From Escherichia phage Ec_Makalu_003, in sequence record MN882349.1: 64,000 nucleotides of DNA; one strand, 5' to 3'. The notes beneath the pieces were generated by a model. That model had not been told where the DNA came from and searched no databases. It worked only from the letters and a program-made list of their open reading frames with translations. The position numbers and the translations under genes were made by a program. Below, in pieces: positions 2,202 through 51,925 of this stretch (positions within the stretch are counted from its first letter, which is position 1; each line of letters starts with the position of its first letter).

Positions 2202-4064
2202 TTACATGTGCTTAACGCGGTTTACCATCTCGGAGTGTTTCCCGTGGTTGAATGGACGCAGGTCAACAGATCCAAGATATCCACTAACGCGACGGATAAC
2301 ATTCATCTTTTCAAGATTGTCATTGCCACAATCAGGGCAAACAAAACCAGACTCGGTCGCTCTCATTTCCTTAGTAGATCCGCATACATGACATACATCA
2401 GAAGGAGTATTAACACCGAAGTAGTGCAATTTATCCATTGCATAGTCTACTACAGTTTCAAGCCCTTTAATGTTGTTTTTCATGTCCGGGAACTCAACAT
2501 AAGAGATCATACCACCAGACGCCAGCCAGTGATAGTCTTTCTCAAAGTCTATTTTCTCAAACGGTGTAACTTTCCGGTCTACGTCAATGTGGAATGAGTT
2601 GGTGTACCAGTCTTTATCGGTAGCACCCTTAACAATACCAAATTGCTCTCGGTCCAGTCGATTAAATCGATAACAAAGGCTCTCGGCTGGCGTGCCGTAA
2701 AGACTAAACCCAAGTCCGGTTTCGTCCTTCCATTTTTCAGTATAATGACGCAGGATTTTAAGAATATGTTTACCGTATCGCTGCGCATCTTCCGAATCAA
2801 ACGGATGAACACCAAACAGGACGCTCAACACTTCATGTAAACCAATATACCCAAGAGAGATACTAGCGCGACCATCTTTCAGCACTTCCAAAATTTCATC
2901 GTTTTGATGAATACGGAAAAATGCACCTTCGGTATACAGTACAGGAGCAACATTGGCTTTAGCCCCTTTTAAAGCGTCTACGCGACTCATGAGCGCATCA
3001 AAGCAAATAGGCAGACGATTAGCTAGCTCTTGTTCGAATAGCTCAATTCTGCGCATTACAGACGCTTTACCAGCACGACGCGCGGCAATAAGTGCAATAC
3101 GCGGAAGATTCAGAGTCACAACACCTAAGTTATTACGTCCGTCTAATACTTCTTCGCCTTTCTCATTATGCCACACACCCAGGAAGCTACGACAACCCAT
3201 CGGGCTAACCGGAACACTAGATCCAGTGATACTACGGTTATTCTTCGCAGAGATATAATCAGGGTAAAGACGCTTACTAGAACATTCCAATGCAAGTTGC
3301 TTAATGTCGTAGTTCGGATCTTCCGGTTTAAGGTTTAATCCTTCTTCTAAGAACATCACCAGCTTAGGAAACACCGGAGTTATACCATCTTTACCTAAAC
3401 CTTTAGTTCGAACTTTCAGGATCGCTTTCTGAATCAGTTTTTCTTCCCAGCTAGTACCCATACCAAAGGTTAAAGTCACAAAAGGTGTTTGACCGTTGGT
3501 AGAGAACAAAGTGTTGATCTCATATTCCAACGCCTGATATCCGTCTAGTGTTTCTTTTTCTGTCTTCTCTTGTGCATAGAGAGTATTAGCTTTGATTCCG
3601 TAGGTTTCGGCATCAGCAAGGTGTTTATGATATGTTTTCTTAACATACGGTGCTAACACCTGATCGATGTTTGCTATGGTAGTTCCGCCATATTGATGAC
3701 TTGCCACCTGTGCGATAATTTGAGCTGTTACAGCACATGCAACACCGATCGATTTAGGACTTTCGATTTGTGCGCTACCCAATTTAAAACCATTCTCTAA
3801 CATGTCTTTGAGATTAACAAGACAGCAGTTAGTAAACGGCATAGCGGGTGCATAATCCATATCATGATAATGAATATCACCGTCTACATGCGCTTTATAG
3901 ATGTGCTCAGGTAACACGGTTTTAGCAATCTGTTTAGACACAGCACCAGCAATCAGATCTCGACGTGTCGGGAATGTTCGCGCGTCTTTGTTCGCGTTCT
4001 CTTTGCTTACTTCGTTTTCTTTACCCGTTGCGATCTCTGTAATGTCTTTGATTAGTTTTTCCAT
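2202..4064 (-). CDS. nrdD: anaerobic ribonucleoside-triphosphate reductase (class III RNR)
   Basis: 620 aa; C-terminal glycyl-radical motif 'RVSGYLG' and Zn-ribbon 'CHVCGS..CPDCG'; uninterrupted, no intron. Confidence 0.95.
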   Translation of the reverse strand: MEKLIKDITEIATGKENEVSKENANKDARTFPTRRDLIAGAVSKQIAKTVLPEHIYKAHVDGDIHYHDMDYAPAMPFTNCCLVNLKDMLENGFKLGSAQIESPKSIGVACAVTAQIIAQVASHQYGGTTIANIDQVLAPYVKKTYHKHLADAETYGIKANTLYAQEKTEKETLDGYQALEYEINTLFSTNGQTPFVTLTFGMGTSWEEKLIQKAILKVRTKGLGKDGITPVFPKLVMFLEEGLNLKPEDPNYDIKQLALECSSKRLYPDYISAKNNRSITGSSVPVSPMGCRSFLGVWHNEKGEEVLDGRNNLGVVTLNLPRIALIAARRAGKASVMRRIELFEQELANRLPICFDALMSRVDALKGAKANVAPVLYTEGAFFRIHQNDEILEVLKDGRASISLGYIGLHEVLSVLFGVHPFDSEDAQRYGKHILKILRHYTEKWKDETGLGFSLYGTPAESLCYRFNRLDREQFGIVKGATDKDWYTNSFHIDVDRKVTPFEKIDFEKDYHWLASGGMISYVEFPDMKNNIKGLETVVDYAMDKLHYFGVNTPSDVCHVCGSTKEMRATESGFVCPDCGNDNLEKMNVIRRVSGYLGSVDLRPFNHGKHSEMVNRVKHM

Positions 4065-4065
4065 T

Positions 4066-4090
4066 GTATCACCTATGAAAAAGCGGGATT
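4066..4090 (-). terminator. hairpin/terminator between upstream gene and nrdD
   Basis: AGCGGGA-TTTTC-TCCCGCT hairpin followed by U-run on minus strand. Confidence 0.45.
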
Positions 4091-4109
4091 TTCTCCCGCT
4101 CGTTGATAG

Positions 4110-4604
4110 TTATTTTACCAGTTCTGCTAATTCTTTTTCTTTAGCTTCCAGTTCAGCCTTAAGCTGTTTAATCTCTTGTCGCTTCTTATTAGCGGCTTCC
4201 TGCTTACTATTTCGGATAATCTGATCTAGATACAACTCCCAATCCTGAATATTTTTGATAATATAACCGTCAACATTAATTGGTCGGATATTTAGTACAG
4301 CTTCCAGTTTAGTCGCAAAGACTTTAATTGCTGGGGTGAAGTATTCATATTCGTTATCTTCAAACCAATAACCTAGACTTGCATTATCAATACGAAGACG
4401 AAGTTCAAGATCAAGGTCTTTATCTTCGGTGTATAGGTCTTTTACACCCCCCATCGAACCAACAACAACTTTAAAACGAATTTTATCAACACCACCAAAC
4501 ACATCAGTAAGGATACCAGCAATTGAACTATTAGCGCAAGATTGGTCGCTGAATGCGTCAAGGTTTTCTTTAGTTACAGTATACCAAACATCTTGTACCC
4601 ACAT
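4110..4604 (-). CDS. hypothetical protein with C-terminal coiled coil
   Basis: 164-aa ORF; C-terminal K/E-rich heptad-like tail; promoter cassette upstream. Confidence 0.55.
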   Translation of the reverse strand: MWVQDVWYTVTKENLDAFSDQSCANSSIAGILTDVFGGVDKIRFKVVVGSMGGVKDLYTEDKDLDLELRLRIDNASLGYWFEDNEYEYFTPAIKVFATKLEAVLNIRPINVDGYIIKNIQDWELYLDQIIRNSKQEAANKKRQEIKQLKAELEAKEKELAELVK

Positions 4605-4662
4605 AATATAATCCTCTCGTTGTTAAGTGGGAGTATTATAGCATACTCCCTTCGCATGTCAA
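4605..4662 (-). promoter_or_regulatory. early promoter/stem-loop cassette copy C
   Basis: minus strand TTGACA-N16-TATAAT; palindrome GGGAGTA..TACTCCC encloses the -10. Confidence 0.6.
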
Positions 4663-5837
4663 GCACGAACTTTTTTCTTTACTGCTTTCACCTTCTGGCG
4701 AATTGCTCGAATCTCTTCGATCTCTTTTTCAGTCTCTTTAACAATTTCTTTGCGATTCTGAATATCTGTATCGAGATTATCATCAAGTTTAGGCAGCATG
4801 TCAATCAAGAACTTTTTAAAGTCTTTCAGGTTTCGGATAACCGCACCTTCACCCATTACCGCCACCCCTACACCATCCGGCAGATCACCAAACAGCTTAA
4901 CCAGTTCAGATAGATGATCATGATCCTCTAGTGCTTCTTCCGGTTCAGATGGCAGTTCAACAAAGTTATAACGTTCATCATTGCTGATCAGATGATACCA
5001 GCAAAGCCCGAAAGATTTAGGAGTATATTCTACACCATCAACTTCAACCGCGTCAACACTTCCGAAAGGATCTACTTTAGTTACCTTAAATCCATGTTCC
5101 AGCTTTTGAACAATTTCAATAACATGGCTGGATACGGTTTCAGTGTTAAACCAATGAGGCAAATTATGCTGATTTGGCTTGTAGCGTTCGCCTACTTTAA
5201 ATCGCTGACCTTCCGCTTGCATAGAATGAAATTGATGGTTGGTGATTTCCGCGAAGTATTCAAATTCGCCACCGTCAAACACACAAGCCCATTGATCACA
5301 AAAACGATCTGCCTTAACGGTTTCACCTTTCGCGGTGATCATGGTAGCTGATCCGTGCAATTCTTCTTCAACCAAAAAGCCATATTCGACAAAATCAGCA
5401 AGTTTCATGGCTTCTTTGTGTTCTGGGTCATGCTCTCCCCAGAATCGCTTAAATTCTTGCAAACCTTCTGGGGTAAACGAATAACATTTACCTTTTTCAA
5501 AGTAAGTCGGCATTGCATCCTCTTTCTTGTTCATCGCTTCGTATGCCTCTTTTGAGATACGTTTAAAGTATTTGCGCTCATTGTGCATAATCATAGTAGA
5601 CCAATAATAAACGATATCCTCAGCGGAATAAACTACATCTCCAGCTTCAATAGTAATAACATGACCGTGGTCATCTTTTTCTAATACTTTAAAGCCCTTT
5701 TCTACGATTTCAGCAACTCGAATATGACCACGGCGCGAAGCATCGGTCAGAATAATTGAATAGCGAGAAAAGTCTAGAAACTCATCTTTACCGCCTTCAC
5801 GGAATGCATAGTAATGACCTTCAAAGAATTTAGCCAT
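4659..5837 (-). CDS. hypothetical protein, paralog family member (two repeated domains)
   Basis: 392 aa; shares the 'GFKVL..NERKYFKRI(S/T)K' domain with the 5901..6479 and 6488..6748 products. Confidence 0.6.
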   Translation of the reverse strand: MAKFFEGHYYAFREGGKDEFLDFSRYSIILTDASRRGHIRVAEIVEKGFKVLEKDDHGHVITIEAGDVVYSAEDIVYYWSTMIMHNERKYFKRISKEAYEAMNKKEDAMPTYFEKGKCYSFTPEGLQEFKRFWGEHDPEHKEAMKLADFVEYGFLVEEELHGSATMITAKGETVKADRFCDQWACVFDGGEFEYFAEITNHQFHSMQAEGQRFKVGERYKPNQHNLPHWFNTETVSSHVIEIVQKLEHGFKVTKVDPFGSVDAVEVDGVEYTPKSFGLCWYHLISNDERYNFVELPSEPEEALEDHDHLSELVKLFGDLPDGVGVAVMGEGAVIRNLKDFKKFLIDMLPKLDDNLDTDIQNRKEIVKETEKEIEEIRAIRQKVKAVKKKVRA

Positions 5838-7309: not shown

Positions 7310-7603
7310 TTAACCATTAATCTTGTTTTTGACTACAAAGGATCTGAACTCATCAAAGCCACCGATATAATCACCATTATAGAAAATCTGCGGCATGGTG
7401 GCAATAACTTCTACCCCTGCGCGATCCTGAATGTCGGCAATGATAGAATCAATCTTTACCGGACGACCGTTTTCGTCTACACCATCATTAACCGGAATGT
7501 AGATGTAAGGGATCTTACGCGATTCACAAAGGCGCTTTGCATTCTGGCAATACTTACAGTTGTAACCTTCAAAACCAAAAATTTCTACCATATTATACCT
7601 CAA
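7310..7603 (-). CDS. nrdC: glutaredoxin/thioredoxin (RNR reductant)
   Basis: 97 aa; CxxC active site 'CKYC'; 'NGDYIGGFDEF' end typical of glutaredoxins. Confidence 0.8.
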   Translation of the reverse strand: MRYNMVEIFGFEGYNCKYCQNAKRLCESRKIPYIYIPVNDGVDENGRPVKIDSIIADIQDRAGVEVIATMPQIFYNGDYIGGFDEFRSFVVKNKING

Positions 7604-8412
7604 TCTACGTTAGTTACATAAACTTCTTGCGTATCAGAAGACTTGCCACCTGAACGATCTAGGCAATAGGTCTTATTCAACAGGACGCAGTTTAGATCAT
7701 TCCGCTTGATAAAGTCAAGAAGATGATCATTTACCTTTCCCTTATGATGCGTGACATTACTGATACCAAACTGAAAACCACGCGCCATAATAGATTCTAC
7801 CCACTGATAGAATTTAATCTCTTCCTCGTCACTCCAGAACTTATTATATTCCGCAGAAGTGATAAGATACGGCGGGTCCAAATAAACGAAATCACCTGGC
7901 AAGATCTCGATCTCGTCATATCGTCCAGAAGTAAAAATGATTCGACCGTCTTTGTTTTCTTCCTTAAAATTCAGGACACGCTCTACCGCGTTTTCGTTAA
8001 AAGTCCGGCGACCAAAATTAGCATTAAATTCGCCCTTCCGGTTATGGCGGTTAATGTTGCTAAAACTATGCTGAATCAACACAAACAGCGATAGCGGATC
8101 TGGATTCTCGTTATACTTCTTACGGAATGTCATGTAAGCGTCTTTATCTTCGCGAGACAAACCATTTTCGGCAATAATCCGCTTGATCGTAGAAACCGGA
8201 TCAGGACACTCGTCAATGGCCTTGTAAGCGTCAATTAATTGGTGATCATAGTCATTAGCCAGCACATCACCTTCGACGTACAGAGACACGCTCAAGCCAC
8301 CACAAAAGGCATCAACAAAGCGTTTGTAGTGCTTAGGGAAATACTTACTAATTGTCGGTAATAACTTTTCTTTATTGCCAGTATAGGGAATTAAACCTAA
8401 TACTTTCTTCAT
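7600..8412 (-). CDS. dam: DNA adenine methyltransferase (Dam-type, alpha-class N6A)
   Basis: 270 aa; SAM motif 'FVDAFCGGLSV' and catalytic 'DPPY'. Confidence 0.9.
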   Translation of the reverse strand: MKKVLGLIPYTGNKEKLLPTISKYFPKHYKRFVDAFCGGLSVSLYVEGDVLANDYDHQLIDAYKAIDECPDPVSTIKRIIAENGLSREDKDAYMTFRKKYNENPDPLSLFVLIQHSFSNINRHNRKGEFNANFGRRTFNENAVERVLNFKEENKDGRIIFTSGRYDEIEILPGDFVYLDPPYLITSAEYNKFWSDEEEIKFYQWVESIMARGFQFGISNVTHHKGKVNDHLLDFIKRNDLNCVLLNKTYCLDRSGGKSSDTQEVYVTNVD

Positions 8413-10637: not shown

Positions 10638-10707
10638 TTTGATTCTCCTTAAAAAGTGTGTTTCGTTTTGATGTGTGTAGTATAGGGGATCGGCGATCCC
10701 CTGTCAA
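10638..10707 (-). promoter_or_regulatory. early promoter/stem-loop cassette copy G
   Basis: minus strand TTGACA-GGGGATCGCCGATCCCC-TATACT; the 17-nt spacer is a perfect palindrome with two GATC sites. Confidence 0.65.
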
Positions 10708-10723
10708 CAACTTTTTTATGATT

Positions 10724-11044
10724 TTAGTGAATTAACTCTACACCAAAATGAGGCACAGAGAACGCCTTACGAAACACATATTCATCATGTTTAGGAATCG
10801 CCCCTAACCGCTCTATTTCGCTCGCCATCACGATAAACTGTTTATCTGGTGCATATGCCTTGTGTGCTTCAACAACGCACGGAAAACGCGTTTTAGAGAG
10901 TTCTGGATAGTTTTCTGAATCCAGAAGGACAATGAATACCCTGTTACATTGATTGTAGAATCCTGTTTTTGATTTCATCAAGTTTTCTTCTATGTTCAAG
11001 TCGTGCAATCTTCTTTTCATGATTTCGTTGGTTCTTGTCTTCAC
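10724..11044 (-). CDS. hypothetical protein (true start may be an internal Met)
   Basis: 106-aa ORF overlapping the upstream ORF by about 100 nt in another frame. Confidence 0.35.
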   Translation of the reverse strand: MKTRTNEIMKRRLHDLNIEENLMKSKTGFYNQCNRVFIVLLDSENYPELSKTRFPCVVEAHKAYAPDKQFIVMASEIERLGAIPKHDEYVFRKAFSVPHFGVELIH

Positions 11045-14338: not shown

Positions 14339-14408
14339 TTTTGATTCTCCTAGAAAGTGTATCTCGTTTCGATGGGTGTATTATGCAATAACACCGGATC
14401 GCTGTCAA
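14339..14408 (-). promoter_or_regulatory. early promoter/stem-loop cassette copy I
   Basis: conserved RBS and leader; -35 TGTCAA (rc) at 14403-14408. Confidence 0.55.
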
Positions 14409-14427
14409 CACTTTCTAAGAAAATTTT

Positions 14428-14712
14428 TTAAACTAATCGAAGATAGCCCAGAATTTCAGCACCTTTAGCCAGACCTAAAACTTCCCAATCAAGGTCGCCG
14501 TAGTCATAATTTGCAACCATCAGTTCACCATTTTTCATGCAGCAATCATGAGAGAAAATTTGCCCTGCATAAACTACGATAGTAATAAACTTTCCTGATT
14601 CTGGCGGTGTGGAAGACAAAGCGACCATATGACCATTCAGCTTAGTCACCAGTGACGGAACAATAAAATTCGGGCTTACCTGAATGCCGTTAAATTCGTT
14701 TGTGTCTTTCAT
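14428..14712 (-). CDS. hypothetical protein
   Basis: 94-aa ORF. Confidence 0.45.
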   Translation of the reverse strand: MKDTNEFNGIQVSPNFIVPSLVTKLNGHMVALSSTPPESGKFITIVVYAGQIFSHDCCMKNGELMVANYDYGDLDWEVLGLAKGAEILGYLRLV

Positions 14713-15593: not shown

Positions 15594-15651
15594 TTTGATT
15601 CTCCTTTGTTGTCGATGTGTGCATTATGCTATACTATATTCCGGTTGTCAA
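15594..15651 (-). promoter_or_regulatory. early promoter/stem-loop cassette copy J
   Basis: conserved RBS/leader; -35 TGTCAA (rc) at 15646-15651. Confidence 0.5.
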
Positions 15652-15659
15652 CACCTAAA

Positions 15660-15692
15660 AACGAAAAAGCCACCCTTTCGGATGGCTTTTGA
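15660..15692 (-). terminator. rho-independent terminator
   Basis: AGCCACCC-TTTC-GGATGGCT hairpin with flanking T/A runs. Confidence 0.55.
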
Positions 15693-28352: not shown

Positions 28353-28420
28353 TTTTTGATTCTCCTAAGTGTGTTTCGTTTCGATGTGTGCATTATGCTA
28401 TATTCGTTTATGGTTGTCAA
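28353..28420 (-). promoter_or_regulatory. early promoter/stem-loop cassette copy P
   Basis: conserved RBS and leader GTGTTTCGTTTCGATGTGTG, -35 TGTCAA (rc). Confidence 0.55.
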
Positions 28421-28424
28421 CACA

Positions 28425-28456
28425 TAAAAACAAAAAACCCCGAAAAAAATTTCGGG
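28425..28456 (-). terminator. rho-independent terminator after 57B/acb1
   Basis: CCCCGAAA-AAAA-TTTCGGGG hairpin followed by a long U-tract on minus strand. Confidence 0.65.
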
Positions 28457-41000: not shown

Positions 41001-41102
41001 TCATTCTCTATGTTCCGTGAACTTGTAGATAAACGGTTGAAGGATAATATAGGGAATCCACGCGATCCGAAGAATCCGACACAGAGGAAAATTAATGGCT
41101 AA
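38016..41102 (+). CDS. 7: baseplate wedge protein gp7
   Basis: 1028 aa (T4 gp7 is about 1032). Confidence 0.85.
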   Translation: MIKAPSVTSLTIEKLSANQAYITWDDVGENFFYFVELAETRTRDGEIIPVDELSWVNLGYTADQNWFEDKNLFPEYYYKFRVAVAAEGFEQSKWIETEEFQTFKTNAYNFSMMREFNLANEFIKEKFTYDNREYVKFNTDLIQASLMKEDFVFSPEYANMTNISNYIVVDENFHEIQDHIEKVCTDINRTMLAEMNGVLYLFERFQPIVKVSNDKGQSWKAYKAFNDRVGNPVSRTCVYQSKTTTYVLGYDRIFYGRQASDTRWSADDVRFSDDTITFAKVGDENDLGFDVEVFGVFSRLTGDTTKYAEAMACSDDYLWVGAKDVIRRIRLKNTPVDTVQGSPTFGEKIFDPDIIRVTGNDKAVIQKMDVVDGKLLVFVTGEVKQRYQDPTKPENVVPSDDAGVYLIGSDGLSFQRVFGNTPQEREYIQHGFSNMSTNGDEVFISHYNHHFESILPDPETAAKYELGEAVKYSQEPTYLTDKKIHQTTFRASYDDLRIWELGPQAYYNEADYTWMRRNGVRVWITNDNRPLVVYPEVIYTQEVDTSGILDQNRVNREVYDKGTVTCYLNNVKFEGFKQYASGVMFHKNTGEIIGFYQFNYRVRDQVGVYWKPTNVAFVAELQNQVREVPWVPVHYDREQDPDLRPLLNKMTPDSFLLENENFRKFSEYYLQFLSDGSGTYYNKLKNLIKNKYPREQDAYEYLWSEMNKRNIYADKNKRDAVVRFFESRKSDFYSTKGVEASYKFLFKLLYNEDVEIEVESQAGLEYDIVVSSTNIDEDIVGRTIYTPTGRANVTYLEREYEGGRLRWRVTIHNLIGRFEEGQVIKSEKTAFEGMILVGVRGKELLSSSIDYINRSRSQYTMKIKSALPVSRYANDVMRFVHPVGFGFIGVTLLTMFINSGLSMKHTETIIQSLKNYKFDSGLPSVYPDRVADLDVDGNIKKDPLTGKALYLTSPLIGEEFPVPPEYDQENSELFHGLKASERRFAMSPLFDQSAVSFSMFRELVDKRLKDNIGNPRDPKNPTQRKING

Positions 41103-42090
41103 TGAAAATAGTGTGATCTATCGCTCAATCATTACTAGTAAATTCAGAACGGAAAAACTTCTGAATTTCTATAATTCTGTAGGCGATGGGGCAAATCAAA
41201 TTACAATTTATGGAACGTTTGGACGTTCGGAGCCGTGGTCAGAAAACGAAAAAGAGGTGGGCTTTGCCCCACCTTATCCGACCGATTCAACGGCTGGTGT
41301 TGTTGACATGTGGACCCATATGATGGGGGCGGTTAAGATTAATAAATCACTTCTTGATGCGGTTATCCCTCGTAAAGATTGGGGTGATACCGGACAGGAT
41401 AACCCGCGCACATTCTTTATCAATGACATTGTTGTTGTCAACTCAGCACCATATAACCGAACTGATGTTGGTAGCGGCTGGATGGTGTATCGCGTAACCG
41501 ATGTTCCTGATCGCGGTTACTGCTCGATTTCAAGCATTGACGCTAAAGTCGAGTGTTTGAAGTTGGGCGGAAAGTGGACACCTACTCATGAATCAATCGC
41601 GCCACCTGTAGGAAAGGGCGATTCTATTGATATGGGTGATGGGTATCGTTGGGAATATCTGTACACAATTCCACCTGATGCGGCGATCAACCGTTGCACC
41701 AATGAACATATTGTTGTACCGTTCCCCGATGAACTGCGACAAGATCCGGCGCGCTGGGGCTACGACAATGTGATCACATGGTATAATGACTATAATCTGC
41801 TTTATCGGCTGAAAGTAGTAACTTTGCGTTTTCAGGCTTATATGGACTCTGCGCAATTCCCAACTACCGCGTTAGTGGGTAATACTGGTTTCCGTCAGTT
41901 AAGCATTATCCTTAACCCATTGGAAAAGAAAGCACGCCCTAGCGATCCAGACGTTAAAGCGGTTCAAGATAAGTACCGTCCGCAAGACTTAGAGCCACAC
42001 TCAGGCGAAATGATCTACATGGAAAACCGACAACCTATCGTTCGGTCATTAGATCAAACAGAACTTGTTTCTGTACTGTTTGAGTTCTAA
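41095..42090 (+). CDS. 8: baseplate wedge protein gp8
   Basis: 331 aa; canonical order. Confidence 0.85.
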   Translation: MANENSVIYRSIITSKFRTEKLLNFYNSVGDGANQITIYGTFGRSEPWSENEKEVGFAPPYPTDSTAGVVDMWTHMMGAVKINKSLLDAVIPRKDWGDTGQDNPRTFFINDIVVVNSAPYNRTDVGSGWMVYRVTDVPDRGYCSISSIDAKVECLKLGGKWTPTHESIAPPVGKGDSIDMGDGYRWEYLYTIPPDAAINRCTNEHIVVPFPDELRQDPARWGYDNVITWYNDYNLLYRLKVVTLRFQAYMDSAQFPTTALVGNTGFRQLSIILNPLEKKARPSDPDVKAVQDKYRPQDLEPHSGEMIYMENRQPIVRSLDQTELVSVLFEF

Positions 42091-42103
42091 GTGTATGATT
42101 TAA

Positions 42104-42131
42104 AAGCCAATTCGAGAGAGTTGGCTTTTTC
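42104..42131 (+). terminator. rho-independent terminator after gene 8
   Basis: AAGCCAA..TTGGCTT hairpin followed by TTTTT. Confidence 0.6.
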
Positions 42132-42142
42132 TATTTTGGGTG

Positions 42143-42170
42143 TTGACAATCTTGTCTGATAAGGTATAAT
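42143..42170 (+). promoter_or_regulatory. near-consensus sigma70 promoter driving the cassette
   Basis: TTGACA (42143-42148), 16-nt spacer, TATAAT (42165-42170); GGAGG RBS follows. Confidence 0.65.
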
Positions 42171-42199
42171 GCTCACATCTAAACAACGGAGGATAAATT

Positions 42200-42457
42200 A
42201 TGGCACGTCGTAAATTTACAGATAATTGTGAAGCAATTCAGGTATCCCCTTGCGGTTGGGATGTGATCGCGAAAGGTGAAAAGATCGGAGAGATCATCGA
42301 TCATACTCATTCATCACTAGCCGATTACACCGATGAACTGTGGGAGGGTATCAACTTCATGAATGACACTAAACGATTCAAGACTATCGACGAAGCTATC
42401 TATTTTGTGTATAATCCAACTTTCGGTATGTGGACTGATAGAAAATGGCACGCGTAA
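42200..42457 (+). CDS. cassette protein 1, unknown function
   Basis: 85 aa; begins MAR; ends '..MWTDRKWHA'. Confidence 0.55.
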   Translation: MARRKFTDNCEAIQVSPCGWDVIAKGEKIGEIIDHTHSSLADYTDELWEGINFMNDTKRFKTIDEAIYFVYNPTFGMWTDRKWHA

Positions 42458-42774
42458 ATATTAAACGGCATTATACAATGGGTAAACCAAAACATCCAAT
42501 GCATAAAGTGTTTTGGGGCTTACATCTTCAAGAAAAATGGCATGATAACTATTGGTTTTGTGACCATGATAAGAAGTGGCATTCTCAAGATGAAGTTAAT
42601 GCGATGATGGAACAGGGTATAAAGTTTAATTACTCTAATTATGACCATAGCATTACTTGTATTCGAAAATTGAAACGGTTTATTCGAAAGAATCCACAAT
42701 TTAAAAACTTTGTGTTCTTTATGTCTCATGTTTATTTGGGGCATAGCGTTACCGTAACAGCAAAGGTTAAATAA
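42445..42774 (+). CDS. cassette protein 2, Trp/His-rich, unknown function
   Basis: 109 aa; 'EKWHDNYWFCDHDKKWH' repeats the W..KWH motif. Confidence 0.55.
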   Translation: MARVNIKRHYTMGKPKHPMHKVFWGLHLQEKWHDNYWFCDHDKKWHSQDEVNAMMEQGIKFNYSNYDHSITCIRKLKRFIRKNPQFKNFVFFMSHVYLGHSVTVTAKVK

Positions 42775-43613
42775 TGGCACGACTTTCCAAACAAGAACAA
42801 AAATTACACGATCGGGCAATGGAGCTAATCAATTCAGACCGCCCATTGACATATGAAGAAAAGGAGTTTTGCTATAATAACTATCATGGAGATGGTCTAG
42901 GTGGTTCCGGTGCATTCTTTACCCCAGAGGGGCTTGCGTGGGATTTTACCATTGACGCACACTGCACCGGAAAAGTATTAGATTTGTGTGCTGGGATCGG
43001 TCGCTTATCTTTCTGTATGTTACATCGATGCAGACCAGAAAAGATCGTATGCGTCGAACTCAATCCAGAATTTTCGCGGATTGGCAAGCGACTATTACCG
43101 GAGGCAGAATGGATCACCAGCGATATATTCGAATTTGAGTCAAACGAAAAATTCGATGTGGTGATCAGCAATCCACCTTTCGGTAAAATCAATACAACCG
43201 ACACAAAGGATGTATTTGAATACACAGGCGGCGAATTTGAATTTAAGGTTATGACGTTAGGCCAGAAGTTTTCCGATGTAGGTTATTTTATTGTTCCTTC
43301 TGGTTCCGCTGGGTTTGCGTATTCTGGTAGACCTTATTATGATGGATCAGTGAAGTCTAATAAATATCTAAAGTGGAGCAAACAAACTGGCCTTGTGACT
43401 TATGCCGGATGTGGGATCGATACATCAATTTATCGCGATGAATGGCACTGCACCAACGTTTTAACAGAAGTGGTTGAGGTTCGGTATTACGAGAAAGAAG
43501 CCGTAGAAGCGCCTAAATCGCGTCCTAACGAACAAATAGAAGAAAGTAAGGAGATTACCTTACCAGAACAGGAAAGCGAGTCTGGGACGCTCTCAGACTT
43601 GTTTGACATTTAA
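42774..43613 (+). CDS. amino-methyltransferase, probably gamma-class N6-adenine DNA methyltransferase
   Basis: 279 aa; motif X 'FFTPE', motif I 'VLDLCAGIGRL', motif IV 'ISNPPFGK' in that order. Confidence 0.7.
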   Translation: MARLSKQEQKLHDRAMELINSDRPLTYEEKEFCYNNYHGDGLGGSGAFFTPEGLAWDFTIDAHCTGKVLDLCAGIGRLSFCMLHRCRPEKIVCVELNPEFSRIGKRLLPEAEWITSDIFEFESNEKFDVVISNPPFGKINTTDTKDVFEYTGGEFEFKVMTLGQKFSDVGYFIVPSGSAGFAYSGRPYYDGSVKSNKYLKWSKQTGLVTYAGCGIDTSIYRDEWHCTNVLTEVVEVRYYEKEAVEAPKSRPNEQIEESKEITLPEQESESGTLSDLFDI

Positions 43614-43616
43614 TTA

Positions 43617-43646
43617 AAAGCCGTCCTTGTGGGCGGCTTTTTTGTA
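43617..43646 (+). terminator. rho-independent terminator after cassette
   Basis: GCCGTCC..GGGCGGC hairpin followed by TTTTTT. Confidence 0.6.
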
Positions 43647-43653
43647 TGTATTT

Positions 43654-43661
43654 TATAAATA
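43654..43661 (+). promoter_or_regulatory. late promoter (TATAAATA) for gene 9
   Basis: exact TATAAATA about 28 nt upstream of the gene 9 ATG. Confidence 0.6.
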
Positions 43662-43688: not shown

Positions 43689-44543
43689 ATGGCACAAGTT
43701 CCAAAGAAAAGAATAGACACAGGTACTGTCGGCAATCCATCGACTGGCGATATCTTATATGATGGCGGTAATAAAATTAACGATAACTTTGATTCAATAT
43801 ATGACGCATTTGCTGATCAGCGGTTTAAAGACGTAGACCACGGCGTGGGAAGAATGGTTATTCATGCAACCGGATACTATCAGAAGCATCCACGTCAAAG
43901 CTACGCTGGTTCCGCTGTTGAGATTGGGAGTCTACACGATATCGATACAACTCAAGGCGCACTTATTGCTATTCTACCTAAAGCAAAGGTCGGCGAGGGT
44001 GTTGTATTCATAAATAGTAACGGTAGCCTTTCAACGACTACACCGCTCAATATTCGAACTCAAGCAGGTGATTCTATTAGCGGGTATTCTGGTGATGCTA
44101 CAATAACACAACCATTTTCAAAAGTCACTGTTTGGTGTACTGCCGTTGAAGGTAGTCGCGTAACGTGGCGATTGGGTATCGAAAGTATGTTTACCGATAC
44201 AACAACGCCATTGGATAAAACAGTTAACGTAACTGGAGTAGCAACAAACGTTGCTATTGCCGCAAAAACAGAATACGTTTCCATCAAATTATTAACTACC
44301 GCTAGCAATACATCCGGTTCAAAAATGCGTTCAAGTGAAACGCTACTGATGATTGATTCTAAAGCCGGAAAAGTTTATGCGACGGAATATGCAGTTTTGC
44401 AGAAGACAGAAGATGAACTATACACGGTTCGTTATTTCATCGGTTCCGGCGATAAAGTATATGCAGAGTATAAGGCTACTGGCGAAAATATTCGTTTAGC
44501 AGTTAAAGCCGTAGACACTATTAAAATCGGGGTTGCTACATGA
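43689..44543 (+). CDS. 9: baseplate wedge / long-tail-fibre socket protein gp9
   Basis: 284 aa; 'GNPSTGDILYDGGNKIN' N-terminus. Confidence 0.85.
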   Translation: MAQVPKKRIDTGTVGNPSTGDILYDGGNKINDNFDSIYDAFADQRFKDVDHGVGRMVIHATGYYQKHPRQSYAGSAVEIGSLHDIDTTQGALIAILPKAKVGEGVVFINSNGSLSTTTPLNIRTQAGDSISGYSGDATITQPFSKVTVWCTAVEGSRVTWRLGIESMFTDTTTPLDKTVNVTGVATNVAIAAKTEYVSIKLLTTASNTSGSKMRSSETLLMIDSKAGKVYATEYAVLQKTEDELYTVRYFIGSGDKVYAEYKATGENIRLAVKAVDTIKIGVAT

Positions 44544-50215: not shown

Positions 50216-51148
50216 ATGTCAGGATATGTAACCAATAACCCAAGAGAATTAAAAGACGCTATTCTGCGTCGTTTAGGCGCACCAGTGATTAACGTAGAAG
50301 TAACAGAAGACCAGATTTACGATTGTATTCAGAGAGCACTAGAACTCTATGGGGAATATCATTTCGATGGTGTGAATAAAGGATATAAAGTATTTCGTGT
50401 TAGCGCAGAGCAAGCACAACACGGGGTATTTGATTTAAGCGATTCTGGGGTATTCGCAGTAACTAAAATTATTCGAACAAACGTAGGTAGCGCGGCTACG
50501 ATGGATGGCACTGCCGTTTATCCGTGGTTTACCGACTTTCTGTTGGGTTTAGCGGGTGTAAATGGCGGTCTAGGATCTGGATGTAGTAAATTTTATGGTC
50601 CAAATGCAATGGGCGGTGATCTAGGATATTTCGAACAGCTTATGAGCTATCGAGCCACTATGCAAAATATGCTCAATCCGCTGCCAGATTATTGGTATAA
50701 CAGCGCAAACGGACAACTTAAGATAACAGGAAACTTCCGAGAAGGTGATCTCATTGTTGTTGAATTATATGTTAAAAGCTATGTAGACGTTCCTGATATG
50801 ATCGGCGCGGTTGCTGGTTATGCTCATGCGGGAGGATGTTCTACCGCTGGAGGAATTAGTGCCGTTTATGATAATCCAACTGCTGGTTTAAGCGGGATTG
50901 TTGCTGGCATGGGACCGATCAGTGAGAACAAGCAGGGCGCATATAATAACCGTTGGGTTAAAGACATGGCAACCGCTTTCACTAAGGAGGTGTGGGGGTC
51001 CATCATGGCTAAACATCAAGGTCTGCAATTACCCGGCGGTGTCACTGTTGATGGTATCCGAATCATTGAAGAAGCACGCGCCGACATTGAGAAATTGCGA
51101 CAAGAACTAGAATTATTAGATCCTCCGTTCGGCATCCTCATGATTTGA
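50216..51148 (+). CDS. 13: neck protein gp13
   Basis: 310 aa; canonical order. Confidence 0.8.
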
Positions 51149-51184
51149 TTTATTGGGGGAGTATTCCCCCATTTGGAGTAACAT

Positions 51185-51925
51185 ATGTTTAACAACACTC
51201 TTTTTGCTCGCCTTGAATCGCAAAAGGATTATGAGAATACACGACAAACCGAGATTCTCAATCCTTATGTGAACTTCAATAGGCATACTAATACCCAGAC
51301 GTTAGCCGACGTTATGGTCGCTGAAGCTATTCAGATGCGAGGTGTAGAATTATATTACATCCCTCGTGAATTTGTCAAACCAGACATGATCTTTGGCGAG
51401 GATGTTCAAAGCAAATTTACTAAAGCATGGAAATTTGCGGCTTATATTAACTCATTTGATGGGTATGAAGGAGCGGGGAATTTCTTCTCTAGTTTCGGTT
51501 ATCAAGCCAATGATGAACTAACTTTTACGGTTAACCCCAACCTATTCAAGCATCAAGTAGATGATCAAGAGCCAAAATCAGGTGACTTGATTTATATTCC
51601 AATGAGTAATGATTTATTTGAAATTAATTACGTTGAGCCATATCAGCCGTTTTTTCAGGCTGGCAAAAATGCTATGCGTAAAATTATTGCAGAGAAATTC
51701 GTGTATAGCGGTGAGGAATTGCGACCAGAATTACAACGCAACGAGGGAATTAATGTTGATGAGTTTGCGGATCTGGATCTTGCACCGATCACTAATCTGG
51801 ACGGGTTAACAGATATCAACTTAGATCAGTACAAAGAAGATAAGCAATTCAGAAGCGAAGGACAAGATTTTATTGATCCGTTTGATCCTATTAATGGCAA
51901 GGGTTCACCTTTCGCCGATTTTTGA
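51185..51925 (+). CDS. 14: neck protein gp14
   Basis: 246 aa; canonical order. Confidence 0.8.

Follow-up and report, generated by a model that had tools for sequence, protein, structure and literature searches.

DNMT1 is a large C5-cytosine maintenance methyltransferase that carries its PCNA-binding motif in the N-terminal region. In this system, the nearest analogue of what we propose for a small enzyme of Escherichia phage Ec_Makalu_003, a short clamp-binding peptide recruits a DNA methyltransferase to newly replicated DNA (PMC9690074). The gene of the phage enzyme lies in the window analysed here, a stretch of 64,000 nucleotides from sequence record MN882349.1, where it forms the third open reading frame (ORF) of a cassette located between baseplate genes 8 and 9. 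We consider it probable that its product is an orphan methyltransferase which is made early, acts on adenine in DNA and is held at the replication clamp, and which likely protects a genome with unmodified cytosine. It differs from DNMT1 in being a phage orphan of only 279 residues and of putative adenine type, whose candidate epitope is C-terminal and directed at gp45 (at the beta clamp in relatives); there is no evidence of a preference for hemimethylated DNA.

With regard to the tail, the nearest likeness is found in the clamp ligands of the T4 family. gp43, gp33 and gp55 carry a hydrophobic-acidic motif at the extreme C-terminus, behind a variable and unstructured linker, and these C-termini are interchangeable gp45 ligands; in gp55 the linker that carries the epitope is divergent and varies in length, and for the RB69 polymerase a peptide of the last 11 residues has been co-crystallised with the clamp (PMC2988020). 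As ligands of gp45, this review of T4 late transcription names the polymerase, the late-transcription factors and the clamp loader gp44/62, and a methyltransferase is not among them (PMC2988020). Likewise, none is mentioned in a 2024 review of beta-clamp ligands (PMC11139829), and our literature searches, mostly without subscription journals, returned no clamp-binding methyltransferase in phages or bacteria.

With regard to the enzyme, the orphan Dam methyltransferases of phages T4, RB49, T1 and P1 are comparable in that they are phage-encoded, have no cognate nuclease and are presumed to act against restriction. The window also encodes a Dam (7600-8412, minus strand), which we take to be alpha-class; it has DPPY in its C-terminal half, whereas the cassette enzyme has NPPF in its N-terminal half. 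The Dam of RB49, whose annotated target is GATC, has no clamp tail and ends in ...VYVTNVD. The cassette enzyme is of the gamma class. M.TaqI, HsdM of Type I systems and Eco57I/MmeI carry a target-recognition domain or recruit one (HsdS), whereas the cassette enzyme ends about 100 residues past motif IV. The closest small NPPF Rossmann cores, by sequence and by structure, are METTL5 and PH1948, but these are eukaryotic and archaeal RNA enzymes without clamp motifs, and about 170 residues align; human METTL5 was crystallised in complex with TRMT112.

Finally, the cassette resembles the composite PeSL cassettes and morons, in which a stem-loop and a strong sigma-70 promoter stand beside non-essential genes. 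PeSL cassettes mediate modular shuffling in RB49, phi1 and JSE (PMC2839356, PMC4122927). In contrast to these, the element of the window is fixed in its genus and lies inside a conserved block of structural genes rather than in a hyperplastic region, and its stem-loop precedes the -35 box.

The C-terminal tail and clamp motifs across the family

The candidate clamp-binding C-terminus is the most informative feature of the locus, and it was missed by an earlier note on this DNA. The methyltransferase ends in TLSDLFDI and gp43 of RB49 in SLTDLFDI, the last five residues being identical; the RB49 tail itself aligns with the RB69 gp43 tail ASLFDMFDF (Table 1). As in the known gp45 ligands, a gp43-like hydrophobic-acidic epitope is thus found at the extreme C-terminus, and the linker in front of it is variable and apparently unstructured: its length ranges from 10 to 45 residues among relatives, its sequence is hypervariable, and the predicted local distance difference test score (pLDDT) falls to 51-56 over residues 251-279, which take in the C-terminal part of the linker and the tail.

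Such an ending is rare. In a six-frame scan of the RB49 genome and the window (1738 ORFs of at least 40 residues), the pattern [hydrophobic][F/Y/L/M]-D-[hydrophobic] was found at the end of only gp43, the methyltransferase and the DNA ligase gp30, and the chance of a random protein ending in DLFDI is about 8e-7. The tail is conserved in relatives at 64-95% identity and persists where the linker has diverged completely, as in P0002 (TLTDLFDI, 67%), P0004 (SLSMFDI, 65%) and P0003 (TLDFVDFSEI, 64%). When the family is aligned, the copies from prophages end where the core ends, whereas those from T4-like phages add the acidic linker and a conserved terminal motif.

The wider family was surveyed for motifs that fit the bacterial beta clamp. 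HMMER was run exhaustively against 1.84 billion cluster representatives and yielded 725 relatives, 178 of them at E <=1e-30, and 143 full-length representatives of 50%-identity clusters were taken from the best 150 of the 725. With the motif defined as Q-aliphatic-x-[LM]-[FL] or as the hexameric Q-phi-x-[LM]-x-[FL] (PMC11139829), 23 of the 143 representatives carry it within the last 12 residues, and in 10 of the 143 the protein ends exactly on it (...QLALF, ...QLTLF, ...QLGLF and the like). As a control, 12-residue windows taken from the interior of these proteins contain it in 3 of 3067 cases (0.1%; binomial p ~1e-43). The less stringent pattern [LMIF]F occurs in the last 10 residues of 50 of the 143, against a background of 5.6%. 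This enrichment indicates that a C-terminal clamp-binding peptide is recurrent in the methyltransferase family.

The methyltransferase of the window itself has no beta-clamp motif but the gp45-type tail instead. Motif-bearing members were found on a temperate-phage contig that also encodes DnaB, RusA and an S24 repressor, on a plasmid-like contig that encodes ParA, ParB and a relaxase, and in an integrated element in Pseudomonas; the sampled flanks of the first two contain no DNA polymerase gene. In the contexts examined, the type of peptide appears to follow the clamp that is expected to replicate the element.

Further proteins with endings of this kind were observed. The DNA ligase gp30, encoded outside the window (RB49 gene 30; record L022, 29127-30623), ends in ...TVKEVFDV. 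Except for gp43 and the methyltransferase, no other protein in the scan has this ending, so gp30 may also be a ligand of the clamp. RB49 gp33 ends in ...NTLDI and gp55 in ...SLDQFYEIEN. In the window, a 124-residue ORF (25060-25434, minus strand) ends in ...GTENLDFLKTVSF, with a T4-type LDFL clamp motif near its C-terminus.

The methyltransferase core and its relatives

The methyltransferase motifs X, I and IV are found in gamma-class order, as the earlier note had read them: GAFFTP at residues 46-51, VLDLCAGIGRL at residues 68-78 and NPPF at residues 133-136. All three are invariant or nearly so in a 39-sequence family alignment, and within the catalytic (D/N)PP(Y/F) signature N133, P134 and F136 are invariant and P135 is at least 90% conserved. 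Among the profile matches, the strongest are to DNA methyltransferases: phrog_3820 'DNA methyltransferase' (4e-115) and, in PADLOC, the mad2 DNA methyltransferase (8e-16), which is followed by Type II and orphan methyltransferases. The Pfam matches are MTS (5e-9) and Eco57I (2e-6). In the AlphaFold model (pLDDT 86), about 240 residues form an ordered core and the tail is disordered; the modelled core has the catalytic-domain fold of gamma-class N6-adenine DNA methyltransferases. The predicted fold is therefore that of an N6-adenine methyltransferase, although in the model fold alone cannot separate DNA from rRNA as the substrate. The earlier note had thought a second DNA methyltransferase beside Dam plausible, and one that acts on adenine is the best reading of this ORF.

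Two database names were considered and rejected. 'Release factor glutamine methyltransferase' (PrmC/HemK), used in several GenBank records, scores 35.6 bits against the TIGR03534 cut-off of 199, and an rRNA guanine-N2 methyltransferase (RsmC/RsmD), as in the RB49 note, scores 27 bits against the NF007023 cut-off of 295.

No nuclease-like neighbour was found in the window or in 10 other contexts, which include prophages, the plasmid-like contig, the temperate-phage contig and T4-like phages. The enzyme can therefore be regarded as an orphan rather than as half of a restriction-modification system. Nor was an HsdS-like recognition partner found beside it in the window or in the other contexts examined. 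Homologues, too, are orphans carried by mobile elements. They are located at the edges of enterobacterial prophages and in Aeromonas phage 65, while RB43, KP27 and metagenomic relatives have the gene between those of the helicase (gene 41) and the primase (gene 61). In Dickeya phage JA11 (JA11_233; record L026, 2501-3670), the homologue continues into a C-terminal fragment of a beta-class N6_N4 DNA methylase, a fusion in which the fragment covers positions 170-216 of PF01555; a single small ORF separates it from a complete PF01555 DNA adenine methylase.

In Pseudotevenvirus and Slopekvirus lineages, an acidic protein of 114-130 residues is encoded directly upstream of the methyltransferase gene and overlaps it (L004 2673-3065, L003 2673-3065, L023 9682-10038, L024 6986-7330). 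The copies in L023 and L024 belong to PF26219/DUF8046 according to precomputed matches, while a direct Pfam scan of the KP27 copy was empty. This protein is unrelated to ORF1 and ORF2 of the cassette and may be a conserved partner of the methyltransferase in those lineages.

The early unit between genes 8 and 9

Sequence comparison places the source phage in Krischvirus, among the RB49-like 'pseudo-T-even' phages; over the 2.1 kb surrounding the cassette, identity is 99.6% with Escherichia phage Ec_Makalu_002 and 95.6% with RB49. In other T4-type genera, a stretch of 300-420 bp contains both the end of gp8 and the start of gp9, so the intercalation of about 1.5 kb described in the earlier note is real. 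The terminator, the promoter, the three ORFs, the second terminator and the late promoter of gene 9 are also each present where that note had placed them (Table 1). The ORFs are read from the plus strand in overlapping or abutting frames, the third one extending from 42774 to 43613. They share the start ATGGCACG, as had been noted; this sequence occurs four times in the 64 kb, both strands counted, and three of these occurrences are the start codons of the cassette. GenBank records already label the promoter and the terminators and name a 'DNA methyltransferase' at this locus, and an Rfam scan of the region gave no non-coding RNA above gathering scores.

Table 1. Features of the gene 8-gene 9 interval in the window, and the C-termini compared
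Feature	Position	Strand	Basis or sequence
Gene 8, baseplate wedge subunit (upstream flank)	41095-42090	+	Pfam PF09215 Phage-Gp8 E 2e-143; phrog_977
Intrinsic terminator (predicted), 12-bp stem, 4-nt loop, T tract	42102-42134 (stem-loop 42102-42129)	+	Terminator scan
Sigma-70 early promoter (predicted), TTGACA-N16-TATAAT	42143-42170	+	12/12 positions match
Shine-Dalgarno sequence of ORF1, GGAGG	42188-42192	+	Sequence reading; invariant in 4 relatives
ORF1, 85 aa, ORFan	42200-42457	+	phrog_16603, PHROG 2e-59
ORF2, 109 aa, ORFan	42445-42774	+	phrog_12630
Methyltransferase catalytic core, aa 1-240	42774-43493	+	Motif X GAFFTP 42909-42926; motif I VLDLCAGIGRL 42975-43007; motif IV NPPF 43170-43181
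Disordered acidic linker, aa 241-271	43494-43586	+	Varies in length and cannot be aligned across the family
C-terminal octapeptide TLSDLFDI and stop, candidate gp45-binding epitope	43587-43613	+	Likeness to the gp43 tail
Intrinsic terminator (predicted) closing the early unit	43616-43646 (stem-loop 43616-43641 and T tract)	+	Terminator scan
Late promoter of gene 9, TATAAATA	43654-43661	+	Same arrangement in L020
Gene 9, baseplate wedge/tail fibre connector (downstream flank)	43689-44543	+	Pfam T4_gp9_10_N 1e-40
C-terminus of the window methyltransferase			...ESESGTLSDLFDI
C-terminus of RB49 DNA polymerase gp43			...YEKVASLTDLFDI
C-terminus of RB69 gp43, aligned to the RB49 gp43 tail			YEKKASLFDMFDF

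The upstream terminator folds at -15.6 kcal/mol (z -4.2), is unchanged in RB49, GEC-3S and L018 and is labelled as a terminator in GEC-3S; it is predicted to end late transcripts from genes 6-8. The downstream terminator (-17.7 kcal/mol, z -5.0) is likewise unchanged among the relatives compared; it is annotated in GEC-3S and has an equivalent in L020. As for the promoter, six perfect TTGACA-N16-18-TATAAT sites are present in the window against 0.08 expected, which indicates a real promoter class in this phage. Its hexamers are invariant among the relatives compared, while the spacer between them varies. The claim of the earlier note that a sigma-70 promoter operates apart from the late baseplate operon around it is thus well founded in the anatomy, which is that of an autonomous unit with an early-type promoter and with terminators insulating both sides.

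The upstream stem-loop appears to be one half of a composite terminator-promoter element, and together with the promoter it can be classified, from its sequence, as a regulatory cassette of the PeSL type. It aligns with other stem-loop and early-promoter elements of the early region, including the shared leader TATAATGCTCACATC, and it combines what PeSL elements and morons have in common: a stem-loop terminator, a strong sigma-70-like promoter, a Shine-Dalgarno sequence, a start codon and related copies in the genome. Promoter and terminator activity have been demonstrated experimentally for other PeSL copies, not for the copy in the window (PMC2839356).

The minus-strand early region of the window (1-32000) contains a dense set of repeated PeSL-type elements between small ORFs, for example at 2145-2191, 10651-10727, 14352-14428, 15605-15683, 26369-26445 and 28364-28440, to which the element between gp8 and gp9 is a plus-strand relative. 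The sixth perfect promoter, TTGACA-N18-TATAAT at 51349-51378 on the minus strand, lies inside a plus-strand structural gene (ORF 51185-51925). The sole minus-strand ORF of at least 60 residues downstream of it is located at 51016-51198, and this promoter might serve to transcribe an antisense RNA or a small gene.

ORF1 and ORF2 have no match in Pfam, NCBIfam or PADLOC and fall into PHROG groups without function, in agreement with the earlier view that they have no recognisable family. Word-indexed homologue searches found close relatives only (one cluster for ORF1, five for ORF2). ORF1 is limited to Krischvirus, with a single 90% cluster among 5.8 billion proteins, and it appears to be dispensable, as an 11-bp deletion shifts its frame in RB49. 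In ORF2, Cys, His and Trp positions are invariant among homologues; its AlphaFold2 model, built from a 6-sequence alignment, reached a pLDDT of 55 and was unusable, so that no fold search was made from it. A homologue with 68% identity (P0123) is encoded on an unrelated, non-T4 phage contig of 138 kb that has no methyltransferase. At the DNA level, ORF2 is 77% identical to the rV5-like phage FFH2 (KJ190158.1 12816-13149), with a further counterpart in L016 (5001-5330), which suggests gene exchange between unrelated coliphage groups, the rV5-like ones being of the Vequintavirus type.

The W-x3-4-KWH motif that the two proteins were said to share does not hold up. At the end of ORF1, KWH results from translating AAATGGCAC, the overlapping start of ORF2 read in another frame, so that the resemblance is an artefact. 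Homologues of ORF2 do not conserve its first KWH, and BLASTP between the two proteins found no significant similarity (E=1.1). Neither protein shows homology to the products of the small genes that precede the methyltransferase gene in RB43, KP27 and Aeromonas phage 65. The functions of ORF1 and ORF2 are probably unrelated to each other.

The whole region is present at the same site in 57 of 58 matching phage records, that is, in all 57 sound Krischvirus records. The remaining record, Skers (L027, MW748999.1), was considered as a Krischvirus without the cassette and rejected. Its coding sequence annotated as 'DNA packaging enzyme large subunit' (3479-5296) opens with the 5' end of the methyltransferase, fused to the terminase, and about 9.5 kb carrying genes 9-16 are missing, which makes a misassembly of this 'complete genome' record probable. 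Since the same three genes are uniformly present at this junction within the genus, an outcome that the earlier note had itself named as refuting, the idea of a recent insertion has to be abandoned; the cassette is a genus trait, and one that is already annotated. In itself it is ordinary, being genus-wide and belonging to the known PeSL-type modules.

The description of the locus as a self-contained three-gene cassette fails as well. In a metagenomic relative whose methyltransferase is 64% identical, the order is terminator, TTGACA-N16-TATAAT, methyltransferase, terminator, TATAAATA and gene 9, with both ORF1 and ORF2 absent from the unit. Conversely, ORF2 occurs alone in rV5-like phages. Synonymous divergence (dS) also differs several-fold between neighbouring genes: against L018 it is 0.69 for ORF2 and 0.11-0.32 for the genes next to it, and against GEC-3S it is 0.26 for the methyltransferase and 0.02-0.05 for the surroundings. 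These parts have separate histories, and the cassette is therefore not one mobile unit. All three ORFs are under purifying selection, with ratios of nonsynonymous to synonymous divergence (dN/dS) against L018 of 0.09-0.25 (0.14 for ORF1 and 0.25 for ORF2).

Competing explanations and biological meaning

A clamp-tethered DNA adenine methyltransferase could work as follows. An autonomous early unit, of the moron or PeSL-bounded type, would sit within the late baseplate operon; its upstream terminator would halt late transcripts arriving from gene 8, and unmodified host RNA polymerase would read the consensus sigma-70 promoter straight after infection. This promoter would drive the two small ORFan genes and then the orphan methyltransferase, while the second terminator would insulate gene 9, to be served by its own late promoter. 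Owing to early transcription by the host polymerase, the methyltransferase would be available when replication starts. The flexible acidic linker would join the core to TLSDLFDI, presumably a copy of the gp43 clamp-binding tail, and this tail would dock on the gp45 clamp that the replisome loads on phage DNA. Docking would concentrate the enzyme on newly replicated DNA and let it track along, and nascent strands would be adenine-methylated before host restriction enzymes act.

Clamp-coupled methylation would suit phages with unmodified cytosine. Krischvirus and Pseudotevenvirus have no hydroxymethylcytosine genes (PMC12115623), and RB49 has no hydroxymethylcytosine pathway (PMC4041780, PMC12115623). 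The family matches that were sampled come from Krischvirus, Pseudotevenvirus and Slopekvirus, and no classical T-even record (Tequatrovirus or Mosigvirus) was found among the 60 sampled of 291 matches. An anti-restriction role remains plausible.

Several observations weigh against this proposal, some of which concern the DNA itself. Nucleoside analysis of Krischvirus TB34 by high-performance liquid chromatography-mass spectrometry (HPLC-MS) found no detectable modified DNA (PMC13390438), and RB49 DNA is cut by DraI, HpaII and NheI (PMC4041780). It is therefore unlikely that virion DNA is methylated densely or non-specifically, and methylation would be sparse, if there is any; the HPLC-MS analysis evidently did not score low-frequency N6-methyladenine (m6A) such as that of Dam sites. 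As a side observation, the Krischviruses SAP and TB34 are 99.96% identical and differ in cytosine hypermodification (PMC13390438), and since both records carry the cassette, it is unlikely to be the cause of that difference. Others concern the tail. In the RB43 and KP27 lineages, the methyltransferase ends in (D/E/N)LFTF(T/R)IE and gp43 in SLN(D/T)LFGD(D)W, so that they have only the DLF core in common. Many family members have no tail, including the enterobacterial prophage copies and that of Aeromonas phage 65. The last 14 nucleotides of the methyltransferase gene are identical to those of gene 43, which fits a copied segment and convergence alike. As regards the core, it has no separate target-recognition domain with which to engage DNA and select its sites, and only about 100 ordered residues lie between motif IV and the disordered tail. 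Two of its three closest structural neighbours are the rRNA m6A methyltransferases METTL5 and PH1948, and in the models RNA enzymes of the METTL5 type are equally close.

It is unlikely, in our judgement, that the protein is an RNA or protein methyltransferase which remodels host translation, either of the METTL5/RsmC type (m6A or N2-methylguanine in rRNA) or PrmC-like, with a gp43-like tail that is irrelevant to its substrate. This would agree with the GenBank name 'release factor glutamine methyltransferase' and with the RB49 note 'similar to rRNA guanine-N2-methyltransferase', with a best Pfam match to the generic MTS family and best NCBIfam matches to PrmC, PrmB and RsmC, with PH1948 and METTL5 ranking within the top three structural neighbours, and with the missing DNA-recognition domain. 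The recurrence of a clamp peptide in the family is the strongest argument for a DNA substrate, and equally for a functional tail in Krischvirus. It also bears on the view that the enzyme does methylate DNA, for regulatory ends (marking, packaging or repair) rather than protection, while its tail serves another purpose or none: competition for gp45 that times replication or late transcription, a degradation or localisation signal, or a passive copy of the 3' end of gene 43. The gp45 epitopes of replication and late-transcription proteins do compete for the same clamp (PMC2988020), and the 14 nucleotides matching gene 43, the tail-less homologues that appear functional in prophages and the virion DNA without heavy modification all accord with this. 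We nevertheless regard it as unlikely, because several lineages retain the tail although the linker has diverged strongly, with a different form in RB43/KP27-type phages; because independent beta-clamp motifs in distant relatives argue for selected binding rather than passive copying; and because early expression and, in other genera, placement among replisome genes fit a replication-coupled role.

Very unlikely, finally, is a single co-functioning anti-restriction or host-interaction operon, in which the methyltransferase would have ORF1 and ORF2 as its partners, for specificity, regulation or inhibition. One promoter is predicted to co-transcribe all three genes, which overlap or abut, start on the common ATGGCACG, are all under purifying selection and occur together in 57 Krischvirus genomes, and a methyltransferase without a recognition domain might need a partner. 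However, the methyltransferase stands alone at the same site in a relative, ORF2 stands alone in rV5-like phages, and RB49 is viable with a frameshifted ORF1. What other phages encode next to the methyltransferase bears no homology to ORF1 or ORF2, the dS values speak for separate recombination histories, and the small proteins match no known family.

The clamp-tethered DNA methyltransferase may be one case of something broader, to which we give about an even chance: that a widespread family of orphan DNA methyltransferases of mobile elements carries a C-terminal clamp peptide fitted to the clamp that replicates them, and that the clamp tethers a recognition-less core. QLxLF would then serve for the host beta clamp and the gp43-like tail for the phage gp45 clamp. 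The elements concerned would be virulent T4-like phages, temperate phages, plasmids and integrated elements, and clamp tethering would give replication-coupled methylation of nascent DNA.

If the tail binds the clamp, phages and mobile elements would have a solution to a gap in timing, between fast replication and DNA that is not yet methylated, and the system would be a prokaryotic and viral counterpart of DNMT1-PCNA. The methyltransferase would be a new class of partner for gp45 and for beta clamps, and its tethering would explain how a minimal methyltransferase without a recognition domain acts on DNA. Database names such as 'release factor glutamine methyltransferase' would have to be corrected. 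For the T4-like phages with unmodified cytosine that are used in therapy (Krischvirus, Pseudotevenvirus and Slopekvirus), it would provide an account of how they cope with restriction.

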